The notes beneath the pieces were generated by a model. That model saw only the letters and a program-made list of their open reading frames with translations, searched no databases and had not been told where the DNA came from. A stretch of 64,000 bases of DNA, from positions 1 through 64,000 of the forward strand of contig JAYZQJ010000262.1 of NCBI GenBank assembly GCA_036149055.1, given 5' to 3'. Positions 6,259-24,592 of this stretch are shown in pieces; position 1 is the first letter of the stretch, and each line of letters starts with the position of its first letter. The stretch is from Myxococcota bacterium (GTDB taxonomy: Bacteria > Myxococcota_A > Polyangia > Polyangiales > Sandaracinaceae). A program made the translations under genes and the position numbers.

Positions 6259-7923
6259 TCAGGCTTTCTGGACCAGGTCGGCGAGCGTGCCGCCCCAGTT
6301 GAGCCGGATCGGGCGCGCGCGGTCCTCGGCCGAGAGCCCCTCCGCGATCCACGCGTCGTGCTCGCCGCGCAGCAGCTCGCGGTAGAAGCCGTAGTCGACG
6401 CCCGCGACCTTCTCGTCGTGTGGGTTCCGCTCGTGATCGCCCTGGATCAGGTTCTTGTTCTCGGCGATGAGCTGGTGGCCGAGCGCCGACCCCGGGTACG
6501 GCGCGTAGAAGGCGATGGACGGCGTGCCCCGCTTCATCGTCTTGACCATGCGCACCGTCTTGATGGCGTCGACGGGCCGCTCGCCCGGGATGGCCAGCAT
6601 CACGTTCGACCAGAGCGTCACCGGCTCCTCGCCCGCGCGCTCCTGCTCGTCGCCGATGCGGTTGATGAGCTCGATGGTGAAGGCGTTCTCCGCCTCGGTG
6701 ACCTGCTTGTTGAGCATGCGCAGCACCGGATCGCTGCCGGACTCGAAGCCGATCGAGACGGTGCTCCAGTTCGTCTCGCGCACGAGGCGCTCGAACAGGT
6801 CCGGCCACTCGCACACGGTGTCGGCGCGGCCGGCCGCCCAGTAGGGCCACGGGCGGTGCGCGCGCTTCGGGTAGAGCTCGAGCCACTGCTTCAGCCAGCT
6901 CGGGTGCTGGAAGAACATCGAGTCGTGGATGACGACGCTGTTGATGCCGTACTCGTCGTCGAGCGCGTTGAGCTCGTCGATGACCTGCTCGACGGGGCGT
7001 CGCCCCATGTTCGGGATGTAGGAGCTCTCGTTGCAGAAGCTGCACTGCCAGGGGCAGACCCGGCTCGTGAGCACCGTCGCGACCGGCCGCGGGCCCCAGC
7101 CGAGACCGGGCTCGAGCGGCCACTGCGACTTGTACTGGAGCCGGAGCGACGCCGGCTTGGGCCAGAGGGTCCGGTCGATGTTCGGCCACTCCGCCATCGA
7201 CGCCGCGCCCTGCCCCTCGAAGACCCGCGGGAACGACTCCGGGCGGGTCACCAGGTCGACGATGATCTTCTCGCCGGGCCCCGTGCACACGTGATCGAAG
7301 ACGTCGGTCGCGATCATCTCGTCCGGCGAGACCGCCGCGTGCATGCCCCCGGTGACCACCCGGCCGTTCGGGTTCAGCTCCTTGAAGATGGCCGCCGCCC
7401 GCGCCGCCTGGGAGTACGTGTAGCTGCGCACGTTCATGATCAGCATGTCGTAGCCGCGCAGCTGCCGGCGCACGCCCTCCCACGTCCGCACGGTGCGGGT
7501 GGAGGCGAGGTCGGTGGAGACGCCGGCCTGCTTCAGGATCGTGCGCAGGAGCCCGAGGCCGTGGTCCTGGAAGGTGCCCGCGTCGTCGAAGTCGATGAGG
7601 TCCCCGAAGTCGCCGAGGTCGAGCCACACCCTCGGGCTCCGGGGCGCGGGCCGCGACACCGACCGGGCGATGGCGCGGAGCGGCTTGGTCACCCCCTCGA
7701 GGCCGTGCCGCTGCACCTCCCGCCCCAGGTCGCGGGCCATGTGGCGATGCTCCCGCACCGTCTTCCACAAGTTCGGGACCCGCTGCCGGACCGCGTCCTT
7801 CAGCGACCGCACCCGCCCGTCCGGCGCCGGCGCCGTGAACGAGCGAGGCAGCCCGGTCCCCCACCGCGGCGCGTCGGACGGAGACCCGCCCTCGCGGCCG
7901 ATCACCCTCAGCCGTCTCTTCAT
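6259..7923 (-). CDS. B12-binding domain radical SAM protein
   Basis: SRVCPWQCSFC (CxxxCxxC); GGMHA B12-domain motif; IGFESG; ATG at 7923 with GAAGGGGG RBS. Confidence 0.9.
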   Translation of the reverse strand: MKRRLRVIGREGGSPSDAPRWGTGLPRSFTAPAPDGRVRSLKDAVRQRVPNLWKTVREHRHMARDLGREVQRHGLEGVTKPLRAIARSVSRPAPRSPRVWLDLGDFGDLIDFDDAGTFQDHGLGLLRTILKQAGVSTDLASTRTVRTWEGVRRQLRGYDMLIMNVRSYTYSQAARAAAIFKELNPNGRVVTGGMHAAVSPDEMIATDVFDHVCTGPGEKIIVDLVTRPESFPRVFEGQGAASMAEWPNIDRTLWPKPASLRLQYKSQWPLEPGLGWGPRPVATVLTSRVCPWQCSFCNESSYIPNMGRRPVEQVIDELNALDDEYGINSVVIHDSMFFQHPSWLKQWLELYPKRAHRPWPYWAAGRADTVCEWPDLFERLVRETNWSTVSIGFESGSDPVLRMLNKQVTEAENAFTIELINRIGDEQERAGEEPVTLWSNVMLAIPGERPVDAIKTVRMVKTMKRGTPSIAFYAPYPGSALGHQLIAENKNLIQGDHERNPHDEKVAGVDYGFYRELLRGEHDAWIAEGLSAEDRARPIRLNWGGTLADLVQKA

Positions 7924-7998
7924 ACACCCCCCTTCCGCTGAACCTACGTCCCGCGCGGAGGTGTCAATCCCCACCGCTGGGGGACCCGCGAACGGGCG

Positions 7999-9243
7999 TC
8001 AGCGAAGGTTGTGCTTCTTGGCGAGGCGCGCGAGGTGGTTGCGGTCCACGCCCGCCTCCTGCGCGGCCCGGGAGACGTTGCCGTCGTGGCGCTCGAGGAG
8101 GGTCATCACGTAGCGCTTCTCGAACGCGTCGAGGAGCTTCTCCTTGGCGCGCTTGAAGGGCAGCTGCACGAGGTCCTCGGTCACCGCCACCTGGTGCGGG
8201 GCCGGCGGCGGCACGCTCGCCCGGTCGCTGGTGAGCAGGGTCTCCTCGATCATGCGCCGCAGCTCCCGCACGTTGCCGGGGAAGTCGTGGGCGCGGAGCA
8301 GCCCGAGCTCGGACGGGGTGAGCCCGACGTCCGGGTAGCCGATGTCGCGGATGAGGTCGTGCACCAGGCGCGGCAGATCCTCGAGCCGGTCCCGGAGCGG
8401 GGGCACCTCGACCCGCACCGCCGCGAGCGAGAACCAGAGATCGCGCCGCAGCGATCCGGCCTCGACCTGGGCGCGGAGGTCGCCGCGGGCGAGCGCGATC
8501 GGGCGCGCGTCGATCGCGTGGCGCTCCCGGCGGTCGAGCGCCACCGCGAGCGCGTCCTGCACGGGCTTGGGCGCCTCGTCGACCCGGTCGAGCGCGAGGG
8601 TGCCGCCGCGGGCCCGCTCGAGCTCCTCGAGCACCGCCTCCGGCGAGAGCCCGGCCCGCAGATCCAGCTCGACGAAGGCGCCGCCGCGGCGGGCCGAGAG
8701 CTCGTGGACCGCGCGGGCCGCCTCGTTCTTGCCGACCCCCGGCTCGCCGAAGATCAGCACCGGCGCGTCGGTGGCCGCGACCCGCTCCAGCATCCCGTAG
8801 AGGCGGCGCATCGGCGCGCTCGCCCCGACCAGGCGCCCGAACCGCACCCGCTCCGACGGCGCCTCGGGGATCGGCACGTCGGCGGGCAACAGCTCCACCC
8901 GGGTGCGGCCGAGGCGGATCTCGGAGCCGGGCGAGACCACCACCGACTCGACCCGCGAGTCGCCGACGAAGGTGCCGTTGGTCGACTTCAGGTCCCGCAC
9001 CCGGACGCCCTCGGGGAGCAGCGCGAGCTCGGCGTGGTAGCGCGAGACGGTCGAGTCGCGGATCACGAGATCGGCGTCGGGGTGACTGCCGACCAGGATC
9101 GTGCCCGCCTCGAGCACGCGCTCGACCCCGCGGTCGTTGCCCGAGACCACCCGCACCAGCACCCGGCGCAGCACCAGGGCCCCGCCGGGATCGGTGCCGA
9201 GCATGCCGGTGTCGGGGCCGAGGCGCTGGGTTCCGGAGCTCAT
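7999..9243 (-). CDS. FHA + sigma54-activator-like AAA + Fis-HTH regulator (degenerate AAA)
   Basis: FHA (GS..VSRYH..STNGT); GEPGVGK; FPGNVREL; HTH NVSRAAQEAGVDR; lacks GAFTGA. Confidence 0.88.
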   Translation of the reverse strand: MSSGTQRLGPDTGMLGTDPGGALVLRRVLVRVVSGNDRGVERVLEAGTILVGSHPDADLVIRDSTVSRYHAELALLPEGVRVRDLKSTNGTFVGDSRVESVVVSPGSEIRLGRTRVELLPADVPIPEAPSERVRFGRLVGASAPMRRLYGMLERVAATDAPVLIFGEPGVGKNEAARAVHELSARRGGAFVELDLRAGLSPEAVLEELERARGGTLALDRVDEAPKPVQDALAVALDRRERHAIDARPIALARGDLRAQVEAGSLRRDLWFSLAAVRVEVPPLRDRLEDLPRLVHDLIRDIGYPDVGLTPSELGLLRAHDFPGNVRELRRMIEETLLTSDRASVPPPAPHQVAVTEDLVQLPFKRAKEKLLDAFEKRYVMTLLERHDGNVSRAAQEAGVDRNHLARLAKKHNLR

Positions 9244-9268
9244 GGGCGGACGCTTGGTAGCACGCGGC

Positions 9269-10498
9269 TCAGCGGCGGCGCAGCCCGAAGAGCGCGAGCA
9301 GCAGCCAGGCCACGCTCGCTGCGCCCCCCGCGGTCTCGCCCCGGCCGACCGCGCAGCCGCCGGATCCGGGCGGCGCCACCGACCCATCGACGGGCACGCC
9401 TCCGTCGCCCACCGGCCACGGGCCGGCGTCGCGCCCGAGGGGCGGCGGCGCGCAGGTCTCGCTCCCCTCGCCGGGCACCATGAACTGGCTGCACCAGGTC
9501 TCGCCGCCCGCCTCGACCGAGCACACCCGGCAGCTCGAGCGGAAGCCGTCGACCGACGCCCGCACCACGTAGTCCCGGGCCGGCAGGGTGAACGACCAGT
9601 AGGCCCGGTCGGTCAGGGTGCCGCCCTCGGCCGCGACGGTGCCGTCGCTCGTCTCGATCACGATGCGCGCGCCGACCAGGGGCCGGTTGTCGTCCATGCG
9701 CTCGACCACGCCGACGAGCTGCCCGGTCACGCCCGCGCTCAGATCGACCAGCGCCAGGAACGCGGCGCTCGCGCGGGAGGCGCCGTCGCTCGAGGCCACG
9801 ATCAGCCCGTCCTCGCGCGCCCACATCGCGCTCGTCGCGCCCTCCGCGACCCGCACCCCGTCGTGGGCGCCCGCGCCGGCGAGCAGCGCGCCGAGCCGCT
9901 GGTCCGACACGCCCTCGGCGTCGGCGGCCCAGCCGGCCGCGGTCACGATCACCAGGGTGCGGCCGTCCTCGCTGAGCCCGACGCCGGTGCGCGGGGCGCG
10001 CGCGCAGCCGTCTCCCCCGCAGGCGGCGGGCACGCCGTCGCGGAGGACCGGCACGCCCGACAGCACGTCGTGCATCCAGGGCTCGAGCGGCACCACCTGC
10101 TCGCCCGGCGCCAGCACCCCGGCCTGCCGCTCGTCGAGCGCGAGCACGCCGAGCCGCGGGTCGTCGGCGGTGGTGCCCCAGTGCTCTCCGGCGCCCACCG
10201 TGAGCCCGCGCGGCTCGAAGTCGGCGAAGCGGAAGGGGCCGGCCGGGACCGCGATCACCGCCCCCGAGACCACCGATCCGGCCCACGTCTCGACCACCGC
10301 GCCGCGCTCCATCGGGCGCGAGACCCGGGTGCCCACGTCGGCGGAGGCGAGATCGGCGGCGACCTCGATCCAGCGCGCCCCGTCCTCCGCGCAGCGGCGG
10401 AGCACCACCCCGACCGAGGGTGACTCGTCCGCTCCGCACTGCGCCTGGGCGGGAGCGGCCGCCGCCAGCCCGAGCGCGAGCGTGAAGAGGGCCCTCAT
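9269..10498 (-). CDS. Phosphodiester glycosidase (NAGPA/DUF2233-like) protein with carboxypeptidase-regulatory-like domain and MYXO-CTERM tail
   Basis: Signal peptide; RAPRTGVGLSEDGRTL motif; C-terminus GGCAVG...WLLLALFGLRRR. Confidence 0.75.
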   Translation of the reverse strand: MRALFTLALGLAAAAPAQAQCGADESPSVGVVLRRCAEDGARWIEVAADLASADVGTRVSRPMERGAVVETWAGSVVSGAVIAVPAGPFRFADFEPRGLTVGAGEHWGTTADDPRLGVLALDERQAGVLAPGEQVVPLEPWMHDVLSGVPVLRDGVPAACGGDGCARAPRTGVGLSEDGRTLVIVTAAGWAADAEGVSDQRLGALLAGAGAHDGVRVAEGATSAMWAREDGLIVASSDGASRASAAFLALVDLSAGVTGQLVGVVERMDDNRPLVGARIVIETSDGTVAAEGGTLTDRAYWSFTLPARDYVVRASVDGFRSSCRVCSVEAGGETWCSQFMVPGEGSETCAPPPLGRDAGPWPVGDGGVPVDGSVAPPGSGGCAVGRGETAGGAASVAWLLLALFGLRRR

Positions 10499-12081: not shown

Positions 12082-12798
12082 ATGTTCTTCATCGATCCTC
12101 TCTACATCGTCCTCGCCCTCCCCGGCATCGCGCTCGGGCTCTGGGCGCAGTGGCGCGTCAAGAGCACCTTCCGGGAGCACGCCCAGCACACCACGCGACG
12201 GCAGCTCAGCGGGGCCGAGATCGCGGCCGAGATCCTCCGCACCGAGGGCATCCGCGACGTGCGCATCGAGCCGAGCGACGGCTTCCTCAGCGACCACTAC
12301 AGCCCGGGCGAGAAGGCCCTGCGCCTCTCGCCGGACGTCTACCACGGCCGCTCGATCAGCGCGGCGGGGGTGGCGGCGCACGAGGTCGGGCACGCGATCC
12401 AGCACGCCCGGAGCTACCCGTTCCTGGGCATGCGCTCGACCCTGGTGCCGGCGGTGCAGTTCGCCTCGCCCTTCGCGGTCCCGATCATCATCGGCGGCTT
12501 CTTCCTGAGCGGCTTCGTCGGGACCACGATCGGCCAGCTGGTGACCATCCTCGGCCTGGCCCTGTTCTCGATCGTCGTGCTCTTCCAGCTGGTCACGCTG
12601 CCGGTCGAGTTCGACGCGAGCCGGCGCGCGCTGGCCGCGATCGAAGCCGGCGGGCTGCTCACCCCGCAGGAGCACCGGGGCGCGGCGGAGGTGCTCCGGG
12701 CGGCGGCCTGGACCTACGTCGCCGCCGCGGTGAGCTCACTGCTCACCCTGCTCTACTTCCTGCTCCGCAGCGGGCTCCTCGGCGGTCGCCGCGACTGA
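12082..12798 (+). CDS. Membrane zinc metallopeptidase (YugP/Zn_peptidase_2 family)
   Basis: SDHY, AAHEVGHAIQH (HExxH), TLPVEFDASRRA, AAWTYVAAA. Confidence 0.93.
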   Translation: MFFIDPLYIVLALPGIALGLWAQWRVKSTFREHAQHTTRRQLSGAEIAAEILRTEGIRDVRIEPSDGFLSDHYSPGEKALRLSPDVYHGRSISAAGVAAHEVGHAIQHARSYPFLGMRSTLVPAVQFASPFAVPIIIGGFFLSGFVGTTIGQLVTILGLALFSIVVLFQLVTLPVEFDASRRALAAIEAGGLLTPQEHRGAAEVLRAAAWTYVAAAVSSLLTLLYFLLRSGLLGGRRD

Positions 12799-13233
12799 TC
12801 GCTCGCTCACCCGGCGCAGGCGCGTCCCGGAGATGGTGCGAGCCGTCAGGAGCTGACGGATTCGCGCCACGAGGGCGCGCCGCCCGCCCGTCCGCGCCAG
12901 CGAGCCCCGCACGAGCTCGTCGAAGGCGTCCTCGTGGGGCACGAAGGCGTTCTCCCCGACGAGCAGCACGAGGCGGGAGCCCCGGCCGTCGCTCATCATC
13001 CGGAAGACCGAGGCGAAGCGCCCCGCCGCCTCGACCTCGCCCGGCCCGGCGGCGATGACGACGAGCTGGGGCGCGCGGCGGAGCAGGCTGTCGAGCGCCG
13101 CGTTGGGATCCGCGAAGCCCTGCGCCGAGAAGCCGAGGTCCTCCAGCAGGTCGAGCAGGAGGTGCACCCACTCCGACTTCCGCGCGACCACGATCGCGCG
13201 GAGCACCTCGGGGCTGGGGGCCACGTCGTCCAT
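12736..13233 (-). CDS. Atypical receiver-like domain protein
   Basis: Receiver-like pattern (IVVA..LLLDLLEDLGF..ALDSL..PQLVVI) without the acidic pocket or phospho-Asp; overlaps the convergent peptidase gene by 63 nt. Confidence 0.55.
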   Translation of the reverse strand: MDDVAPSPEVLRAIVVARKSEWVHLLLDLLEDLGFSAQGFADPNAALDSLLRRAPQLVVIAAGPGEVEAAGRFASVFRMMSDGRGSRLVLLVGENAFVPHEDAFDELVRGSLARTGGRRALVARIRQLLTARTISGTRLRRVSERSVAATAEEPAAEQEVEQGEQ

Positions 13234-13301
13234 CCAGCACCGCACCTTGCGCGAAATCTCACCAAAACGGAAGTCCGCGAAGAGGGGACGAGGCCCGGAT
13301 C

Positions 13302-13335
13302 TCTCAAAATGAGATCGGGGGGCTCAAAATGAGAC
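13302..13335. promoter_or_regulatory. Tandem palindromic operator (CTCAAAATGAG x2)
   Basis: CTCAAAATGAGA at 13303-13314 and 13323-13334, 20-bp period; AT-rich in a very GC-rich background; lies between divergent genes. Confidence 0.7.
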
Positions 13336-13361
13336 GGGCTCGCCGTTAGGGCGCGTCGACG

Positions 13362-15413
13362 ATGCAGCACCTCCCCGATCACGTACGCAAGCGCCCTTCC
13401 CATCATCCTTCGACGCCGCCCTCCCCTACGGTCCCCACCGCGCTCCCCTCGCGCGAGATCCGGGTGAGCCTGGAGACGCGCGCCGGCCGCTGCGAAGGGC
13501 CCCTGCGGAGCTGGAGCCTCCAGGGGCTCTCGTTCACCCCCGACGCGCCGCTGCCCCTGCCGGTCGGCGCGAGGGCCGAGGTCGTGGTGACCAGCCGCCA
13601 CGGGGAGACGCCCCGGCTCGCGGCGATCGTGGGCGGGAGCGACGCGGGCGCGCTCGCCGTCGTGCTCCCGTCGCTCGACGAGGCGCAGGCCCGGTCGCTG
13701 CTCCGGATCGCGCGGGTGGACTCGGAGCCGCACCGCGACACCCGCCCGGCGCCGTCCGAGGTCCGGGAGCCGATCACCGAGCCGACGCGGATCCGCGCGC
13801 TCCTCCACAACCTCGTCACCGAGCGTCGCGTCGGCCGGATCCACCCGCTCGACGGGACGCCGATCGAGGTGACCGCCGAGGCGCTCGAGACGGAAGGCGG
13901 CGAGCACGTCCGCTTCCGCATGTCGCGCTCGGTGTTGCCCCGCCCGCCCTACTTCATCGAGCTCGCCGGCTACGCGTCCGTCTACTGGATCCCGGTGCTC
14001 GAGGCGGTCTGCGATCCCGACGCGCGGACCCTGAAGGTCTGGACGCCCGCCGCGGTGGTGCGGGTGCGGCATCGCAAGAACCCGCGCGCGGCCGCGCCGA
14101 ACACCGCGCGGGTGCGCTTCCGCCACCCCGTCTTCGGCCGCTTCCTCGAGCGCCCGGTGCGCGACGTCGGGCGCCAGGGGCTGAGCTTCGTGACGGTGCT
14201 CGAGGAGGACCTGTTGCACGAGGGGCTGCCCCTCGAGGTGGAGCTGCTCGGGCACGGCGCGCCGCTCCCGCTGCGAGCCGAGATCCGCGCGGTCACCGCC
14301 CTCCGCCCCGGCCAGCACGCGTGCGGGCTGAGCGTCGAGCCGGTCGGCCCGGAGGCCGCCCAGCGCTGGACCACGCTCGTCGGCACCATCCTCCACCCGC
14401 ACACCGAGCTGGCCGCCGACTTCGGCGAGGCGCTCTGGTCGCTCTACGTGGACTCGGGCTACCTGAACCTCTCGGACGGGCGCCCGGAGGCGTTCGAGCC
14501 GCTGCGCGCGCCCTTCGTCGAGGGGGTGCGCAAGCTGGCCGACGCGCCGGAGCTCGGCGGGCACGTGGTGTGGAAGTCGGGCGACCGCATCTGCGCCTCG
14601 GCGGCGGTGCTCCGGCCCTACACCGGCAGCTGGCTGGGCTTCCAGATGGCGAAGGTCCCGGGCGAGGAGATCGACGGCGTGCCGCGGCGGCGCATCCTGC
14701 GGGATCTCCTCCTGCACGCCTTCGAGCACATCGGACAGAGCCGCTCGCCGGCGTGGTTCGCGGCCCACTACCAGGTCGACGCCACCATCGGGCGCCTCAC
14801 CCAGCACCGCTTCGCCGAGCGCCACCAGGGCTCGGGCGAGTCGTGCATCCTCCGCTTCCGCGCGGTCGAGATCGACAGCGACACCGAGCTCCCGGCCGAG
14901 GGCTTCGAGGTCGGTCTCGCGACCGAGGGGGAGCGCCGCGCGCTCGTCGAGGGCGTCGCGGAGCAGCGCCCGGCCGCCTACGTCGACGCGCTCGATCTCG
15001 ACGAGGCGCGCCTCGACCTGCGCGAGGTGACCGAGGCGTGGGGGCGCGTGGGCCTGCGGCGCGAGCGCGTCGTCCTCGCGGCCCGGCGCCACGGAGTGCT
15101 CCGCGCGGCCGCCGTCGTCGAGGCCGCCGAGCCGGGGCTGCACCTGTTCGGACTGCTCGACGTCGTGCGGATCTTTCCGCTCGGGCCGGGCGGCGACAGC
15201 GCCATCGCGCCGCTCCTCTCGGCGGCCGCGCGGTGGTTCCGCGAGCGCGGTCACGCGAAGCTCATCTGGCTCGCGGAGGGCGACCAGTCCGCGCTACCGG
15301 TGCCGCCGCCGCTCCGCGACCTGGGCCTCGCCGACATGACGCTCGTCAGCGGCCGTCTCCTGCCCGATCTGCTCGAGCACATCGACGAGGTCACCGCCCC
15401 GAGGAGCGTCTGA
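13362..15413 (+). CDS. PilZ-domain protein with C-terminal GNAT/N-acyltransferase-like region
   Basis: RHRKNPR...DVGRQGLSF (PilZ RxxxR / DxSxxG-like); N-terminal degenerate PilZ (SWSLQGLSF); C-terminal LWSLYVDSGY and alternating beta/alpha pattern. Confidence 0.72.
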   Translation: MQHLPDHVRKRPSHHPSTPPSPTVPTALPSREIRVSLETRAGRCEGPLRSWSLQGLSFTPDAPLPLPVGARAEVVVTSRHGETPRLAAIVGGSDAGALAVVLPSLDEAQARSLLRIARVDSEPHRDTRPAPSEVREPITEPTRIRALLHNLVTERRVGRIHPLDGTPIEVTAEALETEGGEHVRFRMSRSVLPRPPYFIELAGYASVYWIPVLEAVCDPDARTLKVWTPAAVVRVRHRKNPRAAAPNTARVRFRHPVFGRFLERPVRDVGRQGLSFVTVLEEDLLHEGLPLEVELLGHGAPLPLRAEIRAVTALRPGQHACGLSVEPVGPEAAQRWTTLVGTILHPHTELAADFGEALWSLYVDSGYLNLSDGRPEAFEPLRAPFVEGVRKLADAPELGGHVVWKSGDRICASAAVLRPYTGSWLGFQMAKVPGEEIDGVPRRRILRDLLLHAFEHIGQSRSPAWFAAHYQVDATIGRLTQHRFAERHQGSGESCILRFRAVEIDSDTELPAEGFEVGLATEGERRALVEGVAEQRPAAYVDALDLDEARLDLREVTEAWGRVGLRRERVVLAARRHGVLRAAAVVEAAEPGLHLFGLLDVVRIFPLGPGGDSAIAPLLSAAARWFRERGHAKLIWLAEGDQSALPVPPPLRDLGLADMTLVSGRLLPDLLEHIDEVTAPRSV

Positions 15414-17551
15414 TGGAGCGCCCCCTGATCTTCGACCTGTCGCGGCCCGAGGACCGCGATCGGCTCGCGCAGATCGAGGAGGCGGGCCGCGTGCACCGCC
15501 GCCACGACGCGATCCGCCTGCAGCTCGACGAGCTCGTCCGCACCCGGGCCCGCGGGCGGGCGCTCGAGCCGGCCGCGCTCGAGGCGCGGGCCCTCGCGAT
15601 CCTCGAGGGGCGGCCGCTCGACGCGTACGGCCGCTGGGTGCTCTACCCGTGGAGCGGCGCGCTCGTGCACGTGCTCCCGGAGGACGCCTTCCGCGAGCTC
15701 CGCAGCGACCGCAACCGCCACAAGATCACCGACGCCGAGCAGGCGCGCCTGTCGGCGGCCCGGATCGGGGTGGTCGGCCTCTCGGTCGGGAGCACCAGCG
15801 CGGTGACCCTGGTCCTCGAGAGCATCGGGACGCGCTTCCGGCTCGCCGACTTCGACGCGCTCGAGCTGTCGAACATGAACCGCCTGCGCGCGAGCGTGGC
15901 CGACCTGGGGGTGCCGAAGGTCGAGCTGGCGGCGCGCGCGATGTACGAGATCGATCCCTACCTCGACATCGAGCTCTTCGACCGCGGCATCACCGAGGAG
16001 AACGCCGAGCGCTTCGTGGTCGGCGACGGCGACGCGCCGCTCTCGCTCCTGGTGGAGGAGTGCGACGACCTCGCGGTGAAGGTGCTGCTCCGCGAGCGGG
16101 CGCGGGCCCACGGGGTGCCCGTGCTCATGGAGACCAGCGACGGCGGCCTGCTCGACGTCGAGCGCTTCGACCTCGAGCCCGATCGGCCGGTGCTGCACGG
16201 GCTGCTCCACGGTCACGACGCCGCGGGGCTCCGCGACCTCTCGAAGGAGGCGAAGATCCCGCTCGTCATGCGCGTGCTCGACCCGGCGCACGTGTCGCCG
16301 CGCGCGGCCGCGTCGATGGTCGAGATCCAGGAGAGCGTGTCGACGTGGCCGCAGCTCGCCTCCGACATCGCGCTCGGCGGCGCGCTCGTCGGCAGCACCG
16401 CCCGCCGCGTGCTCCTCGGCGAGCTCGAGGTCAGCGGCCGCTTCCGGGTGGACCTGCACGAGACCATCCGGCCCGAGACCGCGACCCTGCGCGCCCCGGC
16501 CCCGCCGCCCGAGCCGCCGCTGTCGGCGCCGCGCGCGCCCGAGGCGTCCGCCGCGATGGAGGAGATCGCGCGGCTCGCCTGCCTCGCGCCGTCCGCGGGC
16601 AACGTCCAGCCCTGGCGGCTCGAGGTGGCCGGCGATCGGATCACCTGCGCGCTCGCCACCGAGCGCCGCTCGACCTACCTGGGCGACGACGACGGGGACC
16701 GGCTGGCCCTCGGCGCCGCCCTCGAGAACGCGGCGCTCGCGAGCGGCGCCCTCGGGCTCGAGGTGGACGTCTCGTCCTCCGCCGACGGCTGGACCCTGGT
16801 CACGCGCCCGGCCCGGGCCACCGCGCACCCGTGGGCCGCGCACATCGAGGCCCGGCACACCAACCGCGCCCGCGGCGACGGCCGCCCGCTGAGCGTCGCC
16901 CACGGCTACGCCCTGACGCAGGCGGCGGGCGAGGCGGCCGCGCTCTCGATCCTGACCGATCGCGAGGCGCTGCTCGCGCTGGGTGGGGCCATCGGCGCGC
17001 TCGAGCGAGCGCAGATCACCAGCCCGACGCTGAGCCCGCGGCTCCTGAAGGAGATGCGCTGGACGCCGGCGGAGGCGCTCGAGACCCGCACCGGGCTCGA
17101 CGTGGACACCCTGCAGCTCGCGCCGCTCGAGCGCGCGGGGCTCACGCTGCTGCGCGACGCCGACGCCCGGGAGGCGCTGCGCCGGGTGGACGGCGGCGCC
17201 AAGCTCGAGCGAGGCAACGCGGAGACGATCGCGGCGGCCGCCGGGGTCGCGCTCCTGTCGAGCCGCGGCGACGCGCTCCAGGCCGGCCGCGCCCTCCAGC
17301 GGGTGTGGCTGTGCGCGACCGCGCTCGGGATCGGCGTGCACCCCTACGGCACCCCCGCCGATCTCTGGGCCCGCGCCCGCGCCGGTCGCCTCGACGGCCT
17401 CGACGGCGTCGCCCGAGAGCGAGTGGACGAGGCGCTCGAGACGCTCGCCGCGCTCTGGCCGATGGACGACGGCGCGCGCCCGCTGCTCGTGCTGCGCTTC
17501 GCCTACGCGCCCCCCGCGCCCCTGCGCTCGCTCCGCCTGAAGGCCTGGTAG
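15413..17551 (+). CDS. Rv1355c/MoeY-like ThiF adenylyltransferase-nitroreductase fusion
   Basis: ATG overlaps upstream TGA; WVLYPWSG, RNRHKIT, VVGLSVG, DFDALELSNMNR (ThiF); APSAGNVQPW and GRALQRVWL (nitroreductase). Confidence 0.9.
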   Translation: MERPLIFDLSRPEDRDRLAQIEEAGRVHRRHDAIRLQLDELVRTRARGRALEPAALEARALAILEGRPLDAYGRWVLYPWSGALVHVLPEDAFRELRSDRNRHKITDAEQARLSAARIGVVGLSVGSTSAVTLVLESIGTRFRLADFDALELSNMNRLRASVADLGVPKVELAARAMYEIDPYLDIELFDRGITEENAERFVVGDGDAPLSLLVEECDDLAVKVLLRERARAHGVPVLMETSDGGLLDVERFDLEPDRPVLHGLLHGHDAAGLRDLSKEAKIPLVMRVLDPAHVSPRAAASMVEIQESVSTWPQLASDIALGGALVGSTARRVLLGELEVSGRFRVDLHETIRPETATLRAPAPPPEPPLSAPRAPEASAAMEEIARLACLAPSAGNVQPWRLEVAGDRITCALATERRSTYLGDDDGDRLALGAALENAALASGALGLEVDVSSSADGWTLVTRPARATAHPWAAHIEARHTNRARGDGRPLSVAHGYALTQAAGEAAALSILTDREALLALGGAIGALERAQITSPTLSPRLLKEMRWTPAEALETRTGLDVDTLQLAPLERAGLTLLRDADAREALRRVDGGAKLERGNAETIAAAAGVALLSSRGDALQAGRALQRVWLCATALGIGVHPYGTPADLWARARAGRLDGLDGVARERVDEALETLAALWPMDDGARPLLVLRFAYAPPAPLRSLRLKAW

Positions 17552-17552
17552 G

Positions 17553-18068
17553 TCAGGTCCCGAAGCTCAGGCCGCTCGGCGGCTCCCGGTAGCGGAGCAT
17601 GTCGAGCGCGTCGAGCGCGCCCGCGATCGGGAAGTCCAGGCGGGGGTCGAGCTGGCCGGCGTCCCGCAGGAACATGAGCCCGGACTCCGCCCGGTCGAAC
17701 ACCCGATGAGGGTAAGGCATCTTGCGAACGAGCGAGATGCCCGAGACGACGCTCCGGACCGCGGCGGCGCGGAACCCCGTGCCCTCGAACACCAGCGCCG
17801 ACGAGACGACGTCGCCCTCGAACGAGGCCATCGCGCGCGCCAGCTGGTCCCGCACCTCGCCGGGCGGCATCGGGGCCTGATCGGTCACGACCGTCATCGC
17901 GAGCAGCCCGCCGTCCGCGCGCGCGCCGCGCACCGCCTCCTGCATGCCGCGGATGCCGCGGGTGGTGGTCTCGCGGCGCCAGATGGTGAACACGATGCGG
18001 CGCCAGGTGCCGATCACGTGGTGATCGGACTCGTCGATGACGCGGGGCGGGACGTCCAACACGAGCAT
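17553..18068 (-). CDS. STAS/SEC14-like (SpoIIAA-like) hypothetical protein
   Basis: ALVFEGTGFRAAAVRSVV...RVF pattern typical of myxobacterial STAS/SEC14-like proteins. Confidence 0.6.
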   Translation of the reverse strand: MLVLDVPPRVIDESDHHVIGTWRRIVFTIWRRETTTRGIRGMQEAVRGARADGGLLAMTVVTDQAPMPPGEVRDQLARAMASFEGDVVSSALVFEGTGFRAAAVRSVVSGISLVRKMPYPHRVFDRAESGLMFLRDAGQLDPRLDFPIAGALDALDMLRYREPPSGLSFGT

Positions 18069-18194
18069 GAGGGCTAACACGCGGCGGAGCGCGCGCTACG
18101 TGAGTACGGCGGACCCGCGCCCCCCTTGAGACGCGCTCGAGAGGTGGCACACGATGGCGCCGAGGCACCCCCCGCCCGCTTCCACCACACTGAC

Positions 18195-18312
18195 CCGAGA
18201 CGACGGCAGGCGACGAGCGCAGCGAGGCGGAGCAGCCGGAGTGGTGACCGTTGTGCCGGCGCAGCGGGGGGGCGGGGGCGGACCCGGGCGGACCCGCCCC
18301 TGCCCAGCAAAC
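18195..18312. repeat. REP-like composite palindromic element, copy B
   Basis: cgacgagcgcagcga motif and terminal ggcgcag-G-run...ggacccg.ccc.gcccagcaa block shared with 32960-33006; abuts stop codon at 18313. Confidence 0.6.
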
Positions 18313-23659: not shown

Positions 23660-24592
23660 TCAGGTGCCGGTCTCGGAGAGCGGGGACGGCGCCGCGAGCA
23701 CCGTCCGGTCCCGGCCGGCTCGCTTGGCCTCGTAGAGGGCGCGATCGGCGCGGTCGATCAGGTCGGCGAGCGCCTCGGAGCCGACCGGCGCCGCCGCCGC
23801 GCCGATGCTCGCGCTGACCGGGATGGCCTCGCCCCCGTGGGGGACCGCCGCGCGGGTGATCTCGCGCCGCACGCGCTCGGCGGCGACCCAGGCGCCGCGG
23901 GCGTTGCACTCCGCGAGGAGCACCACGAACTCCTCGCCGCCGAAGCGGGCGAGCTGATCTCCGTCGCGCAGCACGCTCTGGATGCGGCGCGCCGCCTCCG
24001 CGAGCACCGCGTCACCGGCCGGGTGCCCGTGGGTGTCGTTGATGCGCTTGAAGTGATCGAGATCGATCATCAGCAGCCCGGCGGGTCGCTGGCTGCGGCG
24101 GGCCCGGCTGAGCTCCTTGGACGCCACGTCCATGAAGGCCCGGCGGTTCCAGACCTGGGTCAGCGGGTCGACCATCGCCTGGGTGCGGAGCGCCTCGCGC
24201 GCGGTGATCAGCTCCTCGTGCAGCTGCACCAGGCGCTTGCCGTTCCGGAGCCGGATGCGCAGCTCCGGCGCGCTGACCGGCTTGGTGAGGTAGTCGTCCG
24301 CGCCCGCGTCGAGCCCCTGCAGCACGTCGTCGTTCCCCGTCTTGGCGGTGAGCAGGTAGACGAAGGTGTACCGGTCGGTGATCTCGGCGCGCAGCTTCCG
24401 GCACACGTCGATGCCGTCCATGCCGGGCATGACCCAGTCGAGGATGGCGAGCCGCGGCGCGTCGGGTCGCTGCAGCGCGGCCCACGCCTCGTTGCCGTCG
24501 GCGTAGGCTTCCACTTCGTAACCCCACGCCACGAGCATGCGCTCGAGCACGGTCCGAGAGACGGCGGAGTCGTCGGCGATCAGTACACGCAT
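23660..24592 (-). CDS. Response regulator-diguanylate cyclase (REC-GGDEF)
   Basis: IADD, LDWVMPG, K-P receiver; DLDHFK.IND.HGH; RDGD I-site; GGEEF active site. Confidence 0.96.
   Translation of the reverse strand: MRVLIADDSAVSRTVLERMLVAWGYEVEAYADGNEAWAALQRPDAPRLAILDWVMPGMDGIDVCRKLRAEITDRYTFVYLLTAKTGNDDVLQGLDAGADDYLTKPVSAPELRIRLRNGKRLVQLHEELITAREALRTQAMVDPLTQVWNRRAFMDVASKELSRARRSQRPAGLLMIDLDHFKRINDTHGHPAGDAVLAEAARRIQSVLRDGDQLARFGGEEFVVLLAECNARGAWVAAERVRREITRAAVPHGGEAIPVSASIGAAAAPVGSEALADLIDRADRALYEAKRAGRDRTVLAAPSPLSETGT

Follow-up and report, generated by a model that had tools for sequence, protein, structure and literature searches.

The genome of a myxobacterium assigned to the Sandaracinaceae (assembly GCA_036149055.1) contains a two-gene operon that pairs a predicted acyltransferase, capped by domains predicted to bind cyclic di-GMP (c-di-GMP), with an enzyme of the TrzS family. 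The operon is located in positions 1–64,000 of contig JAYZQJ010000262.1, a stretch hereafter called the window. Both genes are encoded on the forward strand. Gene A (positions 13362–15413) specifies a protein of 683 amino acids (P0001) and gene B (15413–17551) a ThiF–flavin oxidase of 712 amino acids belonging to the family of Rv1355c from Mycobacterium tuberculosis. They are joined by a TGATG overlap at 15411–15415, in which the stop codon of A and the start codon of B share one base. An earlier interpretation made from the letters alone (the sequence-only reading) had noted this overlap and had viewed the pair as a c-di-GMP-gated acyltransferase coupled to an oxazolone-type pathway. Our analysis supports that interpretation in part. 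Gene B is a TrzS-family member with intact ThiF residues and invariant flavin mononucleotide (FMN)-binding arginines, and its pairing with A is conserved in other genomes; the catalytic and regulatory steps assigned to A are predictions.

Products of genes A and B

Gene B matches the NCBIfam model NF005901, which represents the Rv1355c family, with 662.4 bits over residues 3–710 (cut-off 476). ThiF (E = 2.5e-17) and Nitroreductase (E = 4.3e-6) domains were recognized by Pfam. The motifs quoted in the sequence-only reading are all present, namely GLSVG (residues 122–126) and DFD..ELSNMNR (146–157) of ThiF, APSAGNVQPW (392–401) of nitroreductases, and the PilZ motifs of gene A given below; they lie above chance by the Pfam PilZ, ThiF, and Nitroreductase scores and by NF005901. 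Residues D218, R481, R485, A392-P393, N397, Q399, W401, and R708, as well as the PSxxNxQxW motif, are invariant in all 31 aligned homologues of B. D218, located in EECD, is the likely counterpart of the catalytic D217 of the Mycobacterium smegmatis enzyme, as mapped by position and spacing.

Rv1355c itself has been characterized as TrzS, an enzyme that cyclizes N-acyl-tryptophan with ATP and then desaturates the product with O2; its substrate is an N-acyl amino acid from the adjacent upstream TrzA (PMC12856293). Since Rv1355c is now known as TrzS, the oxazolone-type pathway for gene B is firmer than in the sequence-only reading, and ATP/O2-dependent oxazolone formation by its product is likely, judging from sequence and from analogy. 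The position of TrzS Q651 is occupied by His643 in B (His in 16 and Gln in 13 of the 31 homologues). The likely R540 position, mapped by spacing as the second Arg of DRxR in seven of eight actinobacterial rows, is Gln534 in B and Arg in 23 of the 31. An R540A exchange in TrzS resulted in less FMN and a build-up of a non-final intermediate (PMC12856293). Gene B is thus, by sequence, a TrzS-family enzyme, and because of Gln534 at the likely R540 position its oxidase pocket, desaturation, or substrate may differ.

A full HMMER search with gene A retrieved 666 relatives at E ≤ 0.001 and 258 at 1e-30 (representatives at 50% identity), as compared to just three homologues found by a word-index search; the best 150 of the 666 were used downstream. 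The nearest named homologue (73%) is labelled Sandaracinaceae. Single-sequence searches of PDB and NCBIfam with P0001 gave nothing useful. The AlphaFold2 model has a mean predicted local distance difference test score (pLDDT) of 92.4 for the whole protein and 96.7 for residues 341–683. Its predicted layout comprises a PilZ-like barrel, a YcgR-N-like domain, a PilZ domain, and a double GNAT module.

The first barrel (residues ~34–119; positions 13461–13718, forward strand; model strands at residues 34–101) resembles the second PilZ domain weakly in a repeat comparison. A motif scan found no RxxxR in residues 1–110, which agrees with the degenerate N-terminal PilZ domain described previously; among the 87 relatives possessing this domain, 22 have RxxxR before the barrel. 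The sequence-only reading was right about the PilZ parts but overlooked the YcgR-N-like domain (~135–228). The latter and the canonical PilZ domain were recognized by profile and fold and together span residues ~135–344 (13764–14393, forward strand). Pfam PilZ covers residues 238–330 (E = 2.9e-6), with RHRKNPR at 236–242 (RxxxR = R238/R242) and DVGRQG at 268–273 (D268xGxxG273). The gene-A family profile matches YcgR (5y6f; E = 1.3e-6), and Foldseek aligned residues 135–344 with c-di-GMP-bound MrkH (5kgo) at a root-mean-square deviation (rmsd) of 3.3 and a target template-modelling score of 0.77. The model is nearer to bound than to apo structures, the rmsd being 3.3 for 5kgo versus 12.2 for 5kec and 5.6 for 3kyf versus 14.2 for 2gjg. 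Of 142 relatives (~30–40% identity) whose aligned sequences cover the motifs, 134 keep RxxxR and 124 keep both PilZ motifs. The Ser of the second motif is Gly in gene A (Ser in 130 and Gly in 6 of 152 aligned proteins). Taken from sequence and model, these features make it very probable that gene A binds c-di-GMP.

The C-terminal region of gene A (14394–15401, forward strand), which contains LWSLYVDSGY at residues 358–367, is predicted to be a tandem double GNAT (residues ~345–508 and 512–680) from the AlphaFold2 model, Foldseek, and VIA. Foldseek matched it to tandem GNATs with E values of 4e-11 to 1e-8. The GNAT fold suggested in the sequence-only reading was recovered, but as two domains instead of one. 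In VIA, human histidine acetyltransferase (HisAT/NAT16, 9emd) aligned over 266 residues (Z 15.0, rmsd 4.2); 3ddd, 3tt2, and some single GNATs tied with it, their scores lying within 1 Z. Two GNAT folds per chain are also present in GlmA-type 5kf1, clavulanic acid Orf14 (2wpw), mycothiol synthase, and NMT; these double GNATs, HisAT included, match gene A with Z 12–15 over 245–280 residues at 6–16% identity and lack a PilZ cap. HisAT uses free histidine for N-acylation and tolerates acyl chains as long as myristoyl and palmitoyl (PMC12219266). Since this best-tied match acylates a free amino acid, the fold of gene A is compatible with amino-acid N-acylation. Within the module, 20 polar positions are conserved in at least 80% of the relatives, and R569 in 152 of 152. 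Structures of FeeM and acyl-homoserine lactone (AHL) synthases were not among the best 50 fold-search rows, which does not exclude such likeness. A FeeM ancestry of the second GNAT was considered from a four-sequence profile (E = 3.8e-4 over 138 columns) and rejected with a deeper profile.

Conservation and genomic context of the pair

The survey covered 401 genomes of the phylum with two candidates scored per genome, and misses are possible. A close gene-A homologue was defined by E < 1e-100, a line of our own setting that left 40 genomes with weaker matches outside the count. Such homologues were detected in 19 of the 401 genomes and TrzS over the cut-off in 22. Both were present in 16 genomes from 10 families, versus ~1 expected, and in 14 of these the two genes are located on one contig and strand. 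They are directly adjacent in three (the genome studied here, G000, as well as G001 and G255), and a gene for a hybrid kinase of ~1,000–1,100 amino acids lies between them in 11, most with receiver-kinase genes upstream. In the other two (G309 and G247), contig ends interrupt the cluster, and pieces of the kinase flank the break on either side. A and TrzS are also neighbours in G026 and in the more distant G106. Among seven independent metagenome contigs, TrzS is directly downstream of A in five, one carries the kinase cassette, and one is too short; locus L128 (99% identical) was left out of the counts as non-independent. Synteny of the pair, a check named in the sequence-only reading, was therefore found in many genomes and metagenome contigs (16/19 and 5/7).

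The TGATG overlap is also present in G001. The 9.9-Mb, 96%-complete genome G000 has one copy of gene A and one of gene B. Since only G001 and G026 among its 40 near relatives carry the pair, the distribution is patchy. The A-linked TrzS proteins sit on long branches and are thus not near-copies. A frameshift or an assembly error has split gene A of G393 and trzS of G106 and G309 into two frames each (L081:10806-13009; L097:2-2322; L104:2283-4809). G276 has a second, stand-alone gene for a TrzS-like flavin oxidase (L080:4301-5539, forward strand), convergent to trzS.

TrzA-like and FeeM genes were sought at the loci in all reading frames. Six of nine myxobacterial TrzS loci without gene A adjoin another acyltransferase. 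A TrzA-like gene occupies this place in G005, G266, and G368, and a FeeM gene in G287 and at the second G424 locus. In G332, a fusion of FeeM with a cyclic-nucleotide-binding domain (L103:4118-5113, reverse strand), NasP-like in design, is located directly upstream of a partial TrzS; by sequence, it is a cyclic-nucleotide counterpart of the A+B design. Full-length actinobacterial TrzS loci carry a TrzA-like gene in seven of eight cases. None of the 23 gene-A-linked TrzS loci, several of which end at contig edges, has a TrzA-like or FeeM gene, and neither was found genome-wide in G000. FeeM occurs in a single one of the 16 genomes with the pair, G424, where it adjoins the second trzS. It is mainly because TrzA/FeeM and A occur complementarily beside TrzS that we assign A the acyltransferase role; gene A likely fills the acyltransferase slot as a non-orthologous replacement of TrzA, as far as sequence and gene context indicate.

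Homologues of A without TrzS often adjoin other tailoring enzymes, including a diiron oxidase (G013, G403), a flavin adenine dinucleotide oxidase (G360), a methyltransferase (G032, G025, G205, G028), a B12 radical S-adenosylmethionine (SAM) enzyme (G251, G043), and a halogenase with a P450 (G365); G131 shows none. Separate from its gene-A/diiron-oxidase pair, G013 contains three genes in a row, for FeeM, a distantly related ThiF-oxidase fusion, and a glycosyltransferase (C116, L012), possibly a cluster for a glycosylated oxazolone-type compound. We also observed a second family of ~1,050–1,120 amino acids that combines this PilZ/YcgR-N/PilZ cap with a middle part of no assigned family and, at the C-terminus, a SAM methyltransferase in 5/5 proteins scanned (L136:3759-7130, L137:3628-6888, L138:3389-6583, L139:2876-6166, and L140:2879-6256).

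Proposed mechanism and alternatives

In the scheme that we propose, c-di-GMP would bind and close the YcgR-N/PilZ pair of gene A and thereby alter the activity of the tandem GNAT module, whose product would be an N-acyl amino acid. Gene B would adenylate and cyclize this compound with ATP and likely then oxidize it to an N-acyl oxazolone. The messenger would in this way set the output of a small lipid, possibly a signal, and at kinase-type loci the product would be sensed by the hybrid kinase through a V4R-like input domain. It is highly probable that gene A supplies the substrate of gene B. Given binding, regulation of A catalysis by c-di-GMP is fairly probable, and by analogy to NasP and PixB activation is more likely than inhibition. 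The 31 GGDEF matches of G000 count in favour of the scheme. The whole scheme, in which A is the acyltransferase, B the cyclase/oxidase, and c-di-GMP the control, is in our estimate an even bet. The amino acid and the acyl chain cannot be named, and Trp is not assured.

Signalling of an oxazolone product through the cognate kinase is conceivable but doubtful. The 250-amino-acid N-terminal domain of the kinase has no Pfam match; among the named Atlas clusters, V4R/XylR-N small-molecule sensors come closest (score 0.86), which is a lead only. On contig C178 (L117) of G000, two adjacent frames resemble sensor kinases with a V4R-like input domain and are only distantly related to the kinases of the cassettes; judging from sequence, they are possible unlinked receptors.

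A number of findings weigh against the proposed scheme. The evidence for A activity and c-di-GMP binding comes from sequence and a structural model, and a GNAT fold alone does not name a substrate. Neither P0001 nor any of 40 scanned relatives has a GNAT or FeeM match in Pfam. Homology to TrzA was not detected (hhalign to a TrzA-like profile, probability <0.5%), and gene A matched a 24-match FeeM profile (E = 0.045) more weakly than a generic GNAT control (E = 0.005); for comparison, the TrzA-like and FeeM profiles match at 82% and E = 1e-5. The hybrid kinase is absent from the window locus. TrzS is missing from 3 of the 19 genomes with a close gene-A homologue, and the TrzS loci of G217, G187, and G237 (three of the nine without A) have no acyltransferase in the DNA examined. 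Related loci are not independent, and the TrzS tree, a quick version, is compatible with a single origin of the A+B pairing; several loci end at contig edges. To the same side belong the points on the acyl-CoA motif, the other GNATs of the genome, the R540 site, and the PixB mutants, which are taken up with the alternatives that they bear on.

One alternative gives gene A a regulatory role: as a protein acyltransferase, or as a dead ligand-binding double GNAT, it would act on the neighbouring kinases or on B and leave substrate synthesis to another enzyme. The canonical acyl-CoA motif Q/RxxGxG/A of the beta4-alpha3 loop is kept in HisAT (PMC12219266) but absent from P0001 and mostly absent from its family (present in only 13/152 relatives for the first and 5/152 for the second GNAT), which speaks for this alternative. 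A is also tied to hybrid kinases whether TrzS is present or not, the fold neighbours of its GNAT module include the protein acyltransferases NMT and VipF, and G000 has 27 other GNAT matches. Nevertheless, we consider a regulatory A rather unlikely: a TrzA/FeeM gene that could provide the substrate occurs at 0/23 A-linked versus 6/9 A-less TrzS loci, A still overlaps B where the kinase has been lost, the neighbours that replace one another beside A are small-molecule tailoring enzymes, and the polar residues of the GNAT module, above all R569, are conserved. Alternatively, A could be the acyltransferase for B without c-di-GMP gating, with a PilZ cap that serves localization, partner binding, or a developmental state only. 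The GNAT domain of PixB suffices during growth, when mutants of its PilZ motifs still work (PMC8316039), the role of PilZ in Nas343/Nas354 was never demonstrated (PMC4897644), the motif Ser of gene A is replaced by Gly, and there are stand-alone clusters of ~372 amino acids similar to the GNAT module (Atlas score 0.94). This explanation is unlikely in our view, as RxxxR is kept in 134/142 homologues in spite of their ~30–40% identity and PixB, which also lacks the Ser, binds c-di-GMP (PMC8316039). The short gene-A homologues among the top 150 start inside the PilZ domain and look like contig fragments.

The proposed scheme could also hold with a product other than the unsaturated aromatic oxazolone of the TrzS type, if another amino acid or an amine were used, if the donor were acyl-ACP or something else, or if the cyclic product stayed saturated. 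Gln534 and the effect of R540A in TrzS (PMC12856293) point in this direction, the likely R540 site being non-Arg in 8/14 A-linked TrzS and Arg in 17/17 others. The donor loop of gene A is non-canonical, and no relationship was detected between A and the Trp/Tyr/Phe-specific enzymes TrzA, TyzA, and OxzA. Such a product is nonetheless improbable: the FMN-binding arginines and PSxxNxQxW are invariant in B, Arg is kept in 6/14 A-linked TrzS, and all characterized members of the family make aromatic oxazolones (PMC12856293).

Surrounding features and comparison with known systems

Upstream of gene A, between divergent genes, two tandem copies of CTCAAAATGAG (positions 13303 and 13323, 20 bp apart; 13302–13333, no strand assigned) form a candidate operator. 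The first copy sits inside a TCTCA-N3-TGAGA palindrome, and position 13302, taken as the start of the gene-pair region in the sequence-only reading, lies on this palindrome 60 bp 5' of the ATG. No other exact copies exist in the 9.9-Mb genome. The G001 orthologue of gene A is preceded by two similar copies; none were found upstream of nine more distant gene-A homologues examined. The region 13100–13500 revealed no sigma-70 promoter or terminator. A sigma-54 consensus was likewise not found, and ARAGORN found no tRNA in the window. The divergent 169-amino-acid gene (12736–13245, reverse strand) is receiver-like by eye only and without match in Pfam or NCBIfam; a homologue adjoins gene A in G001 only.

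Downstream, a small convergent gene (17553–18080, reverse strand) encodes 175 amino acids that match no library family, with no hits in Pfam and PDB searches; judging by its pattern, it may be STAS/SpoIIAA-like. A gene of this type is present at 7/10 directly adjacent A+B loci (the three misses are cut contigs) and in 0/13 kinase-type genomes, that is, it recurs beside gene A where no kinase separates A and B. The family has ~10 paralogues in G000, and further members lie close to the TrzS-free gene-A homologues of G013 and G025. A predicted complex of gene A and the 175-amino-acid protein with c-di-GMP scored 0.00, which is evidence for neither side. An intergenic pile-up of high-depth RNA contigs with loose ends at ~18136–18307 may represent a small RNA or a tRNA-like remnant. 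RNA contigs (four runs, two studies) also cover parts of A and B; none of those listed crosses the A/B junction, DNA carry-over is possible, and they were not used as evidence. A REC-GGDEF gene is located 6 kb off (23660–24592, reverse strand) and was not counted as support, since G000 has 31 GGDEF matches. Neither for this gene nor for those of a B12 radical SAM protein (6259–7974, reverse strand) and an FHA/sigma-54 activator (7999–9387, reverse strand) did a link to A+B emerge.

The closest known system is TrzAS (Rv1356c-Rv1355c) of M. tuberculosis, M. smegmatis, and R. jostii, which makes N-acyl tryptazolone. It shares with A+B the ThiF-oxidase fusion, the catalytic Asp in B, and an acyltransferase-fold gene directly upstream of the synthase gene (PMC12856293). 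The upstream gene differs, being a PilZ-capped double GNAT of 683 amino acids here versus a single-domain TrzA-like protein of ~250, as do the host, here a myxobacterium, and the likely R540 position, here Gln. Genes for c-di-GMP turnover adjoin trzAS, and a signalling role was suggested (PMC12856293). OxzAB of Pseudoalteromonas rubra (10.1101/2020.06.11.147165) and TyzACB (PMC10404671) also combine an N-acyltransferase, ThiF, and a flavin oxidase, OxzAB being likewise an operon of two genes. However, their ThiF domains fall into another subcluster than TrzS (PMC12856293), and their acyltransferases are FeeM/AHL-synthase-like. The OxzAB text searched contains no mention of PilZ (10.1101/2020.06.11.147165).

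Control of such a synthase by a messenger has precedents. NasP is a cAMP-activated synthase, as cited in PMC4897644, and c-di-GMP control was proposed in 2016 for the FeeM-PilZ fusions Nas343/Nas354 (PMC4897644). Unlike gene A, the latter have a single N-terminal FeeM-type domain and one C-terminal PilZ, lie outside any biosynthetic operon, and involve no oxazolone step; control by c-di-GMP was proposed for them, not demonstrated. PixB (MXAN_2604) of Myxococcus xanthus, a c-di-GMP-binding PilZ-PilZ-GNAT protein of unknown substrate, resembles gene A in the PilZ domains N-terminal to GNAT, the absent motif Ser, and the spacing (R121, R331, and GNAT from ~451, as compared to R238 and GNAT from ~345; PMC8316039). 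It differs in having RxxxR in both PilZ domains, versus one in gene A, and in a GNAT found by domain search, which that of gene A was not (PMC8316039); the comparison was made by published description only. Five matches to PixB primers were obtained in the 401 genomes, in no case within an open reading frame matching our profiles. A literature search, which covered few subscription papers, revealed no account of a ThiF-nitroreductase gene accompanied by one for a PilZ/double-GNAT protein.

Both the reactions of B and the concept of a synthase gated by a messenger have been published before. What N-acyl oxazolones do and what triggers their formation are described as unknown (PMC12856293; OxzAB preprint 10.1101/2020.06.11.147165), and the operon brings this question together with that of what PilZ-GNAT proteins such as PixB act on (PMC8316039). 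Through it, a large PilZ/double-GNAT family that lacks annotation, with 666 clusters at 50% identity, gains its first partner with known chemistry. Since partner B has an established substrate class, an N-acyl amino acid is predicted as the product of this family. If true, production of a diffusible lipid would be under direct c-di-GMP control, and the family would represent a new class of acyltransferases.

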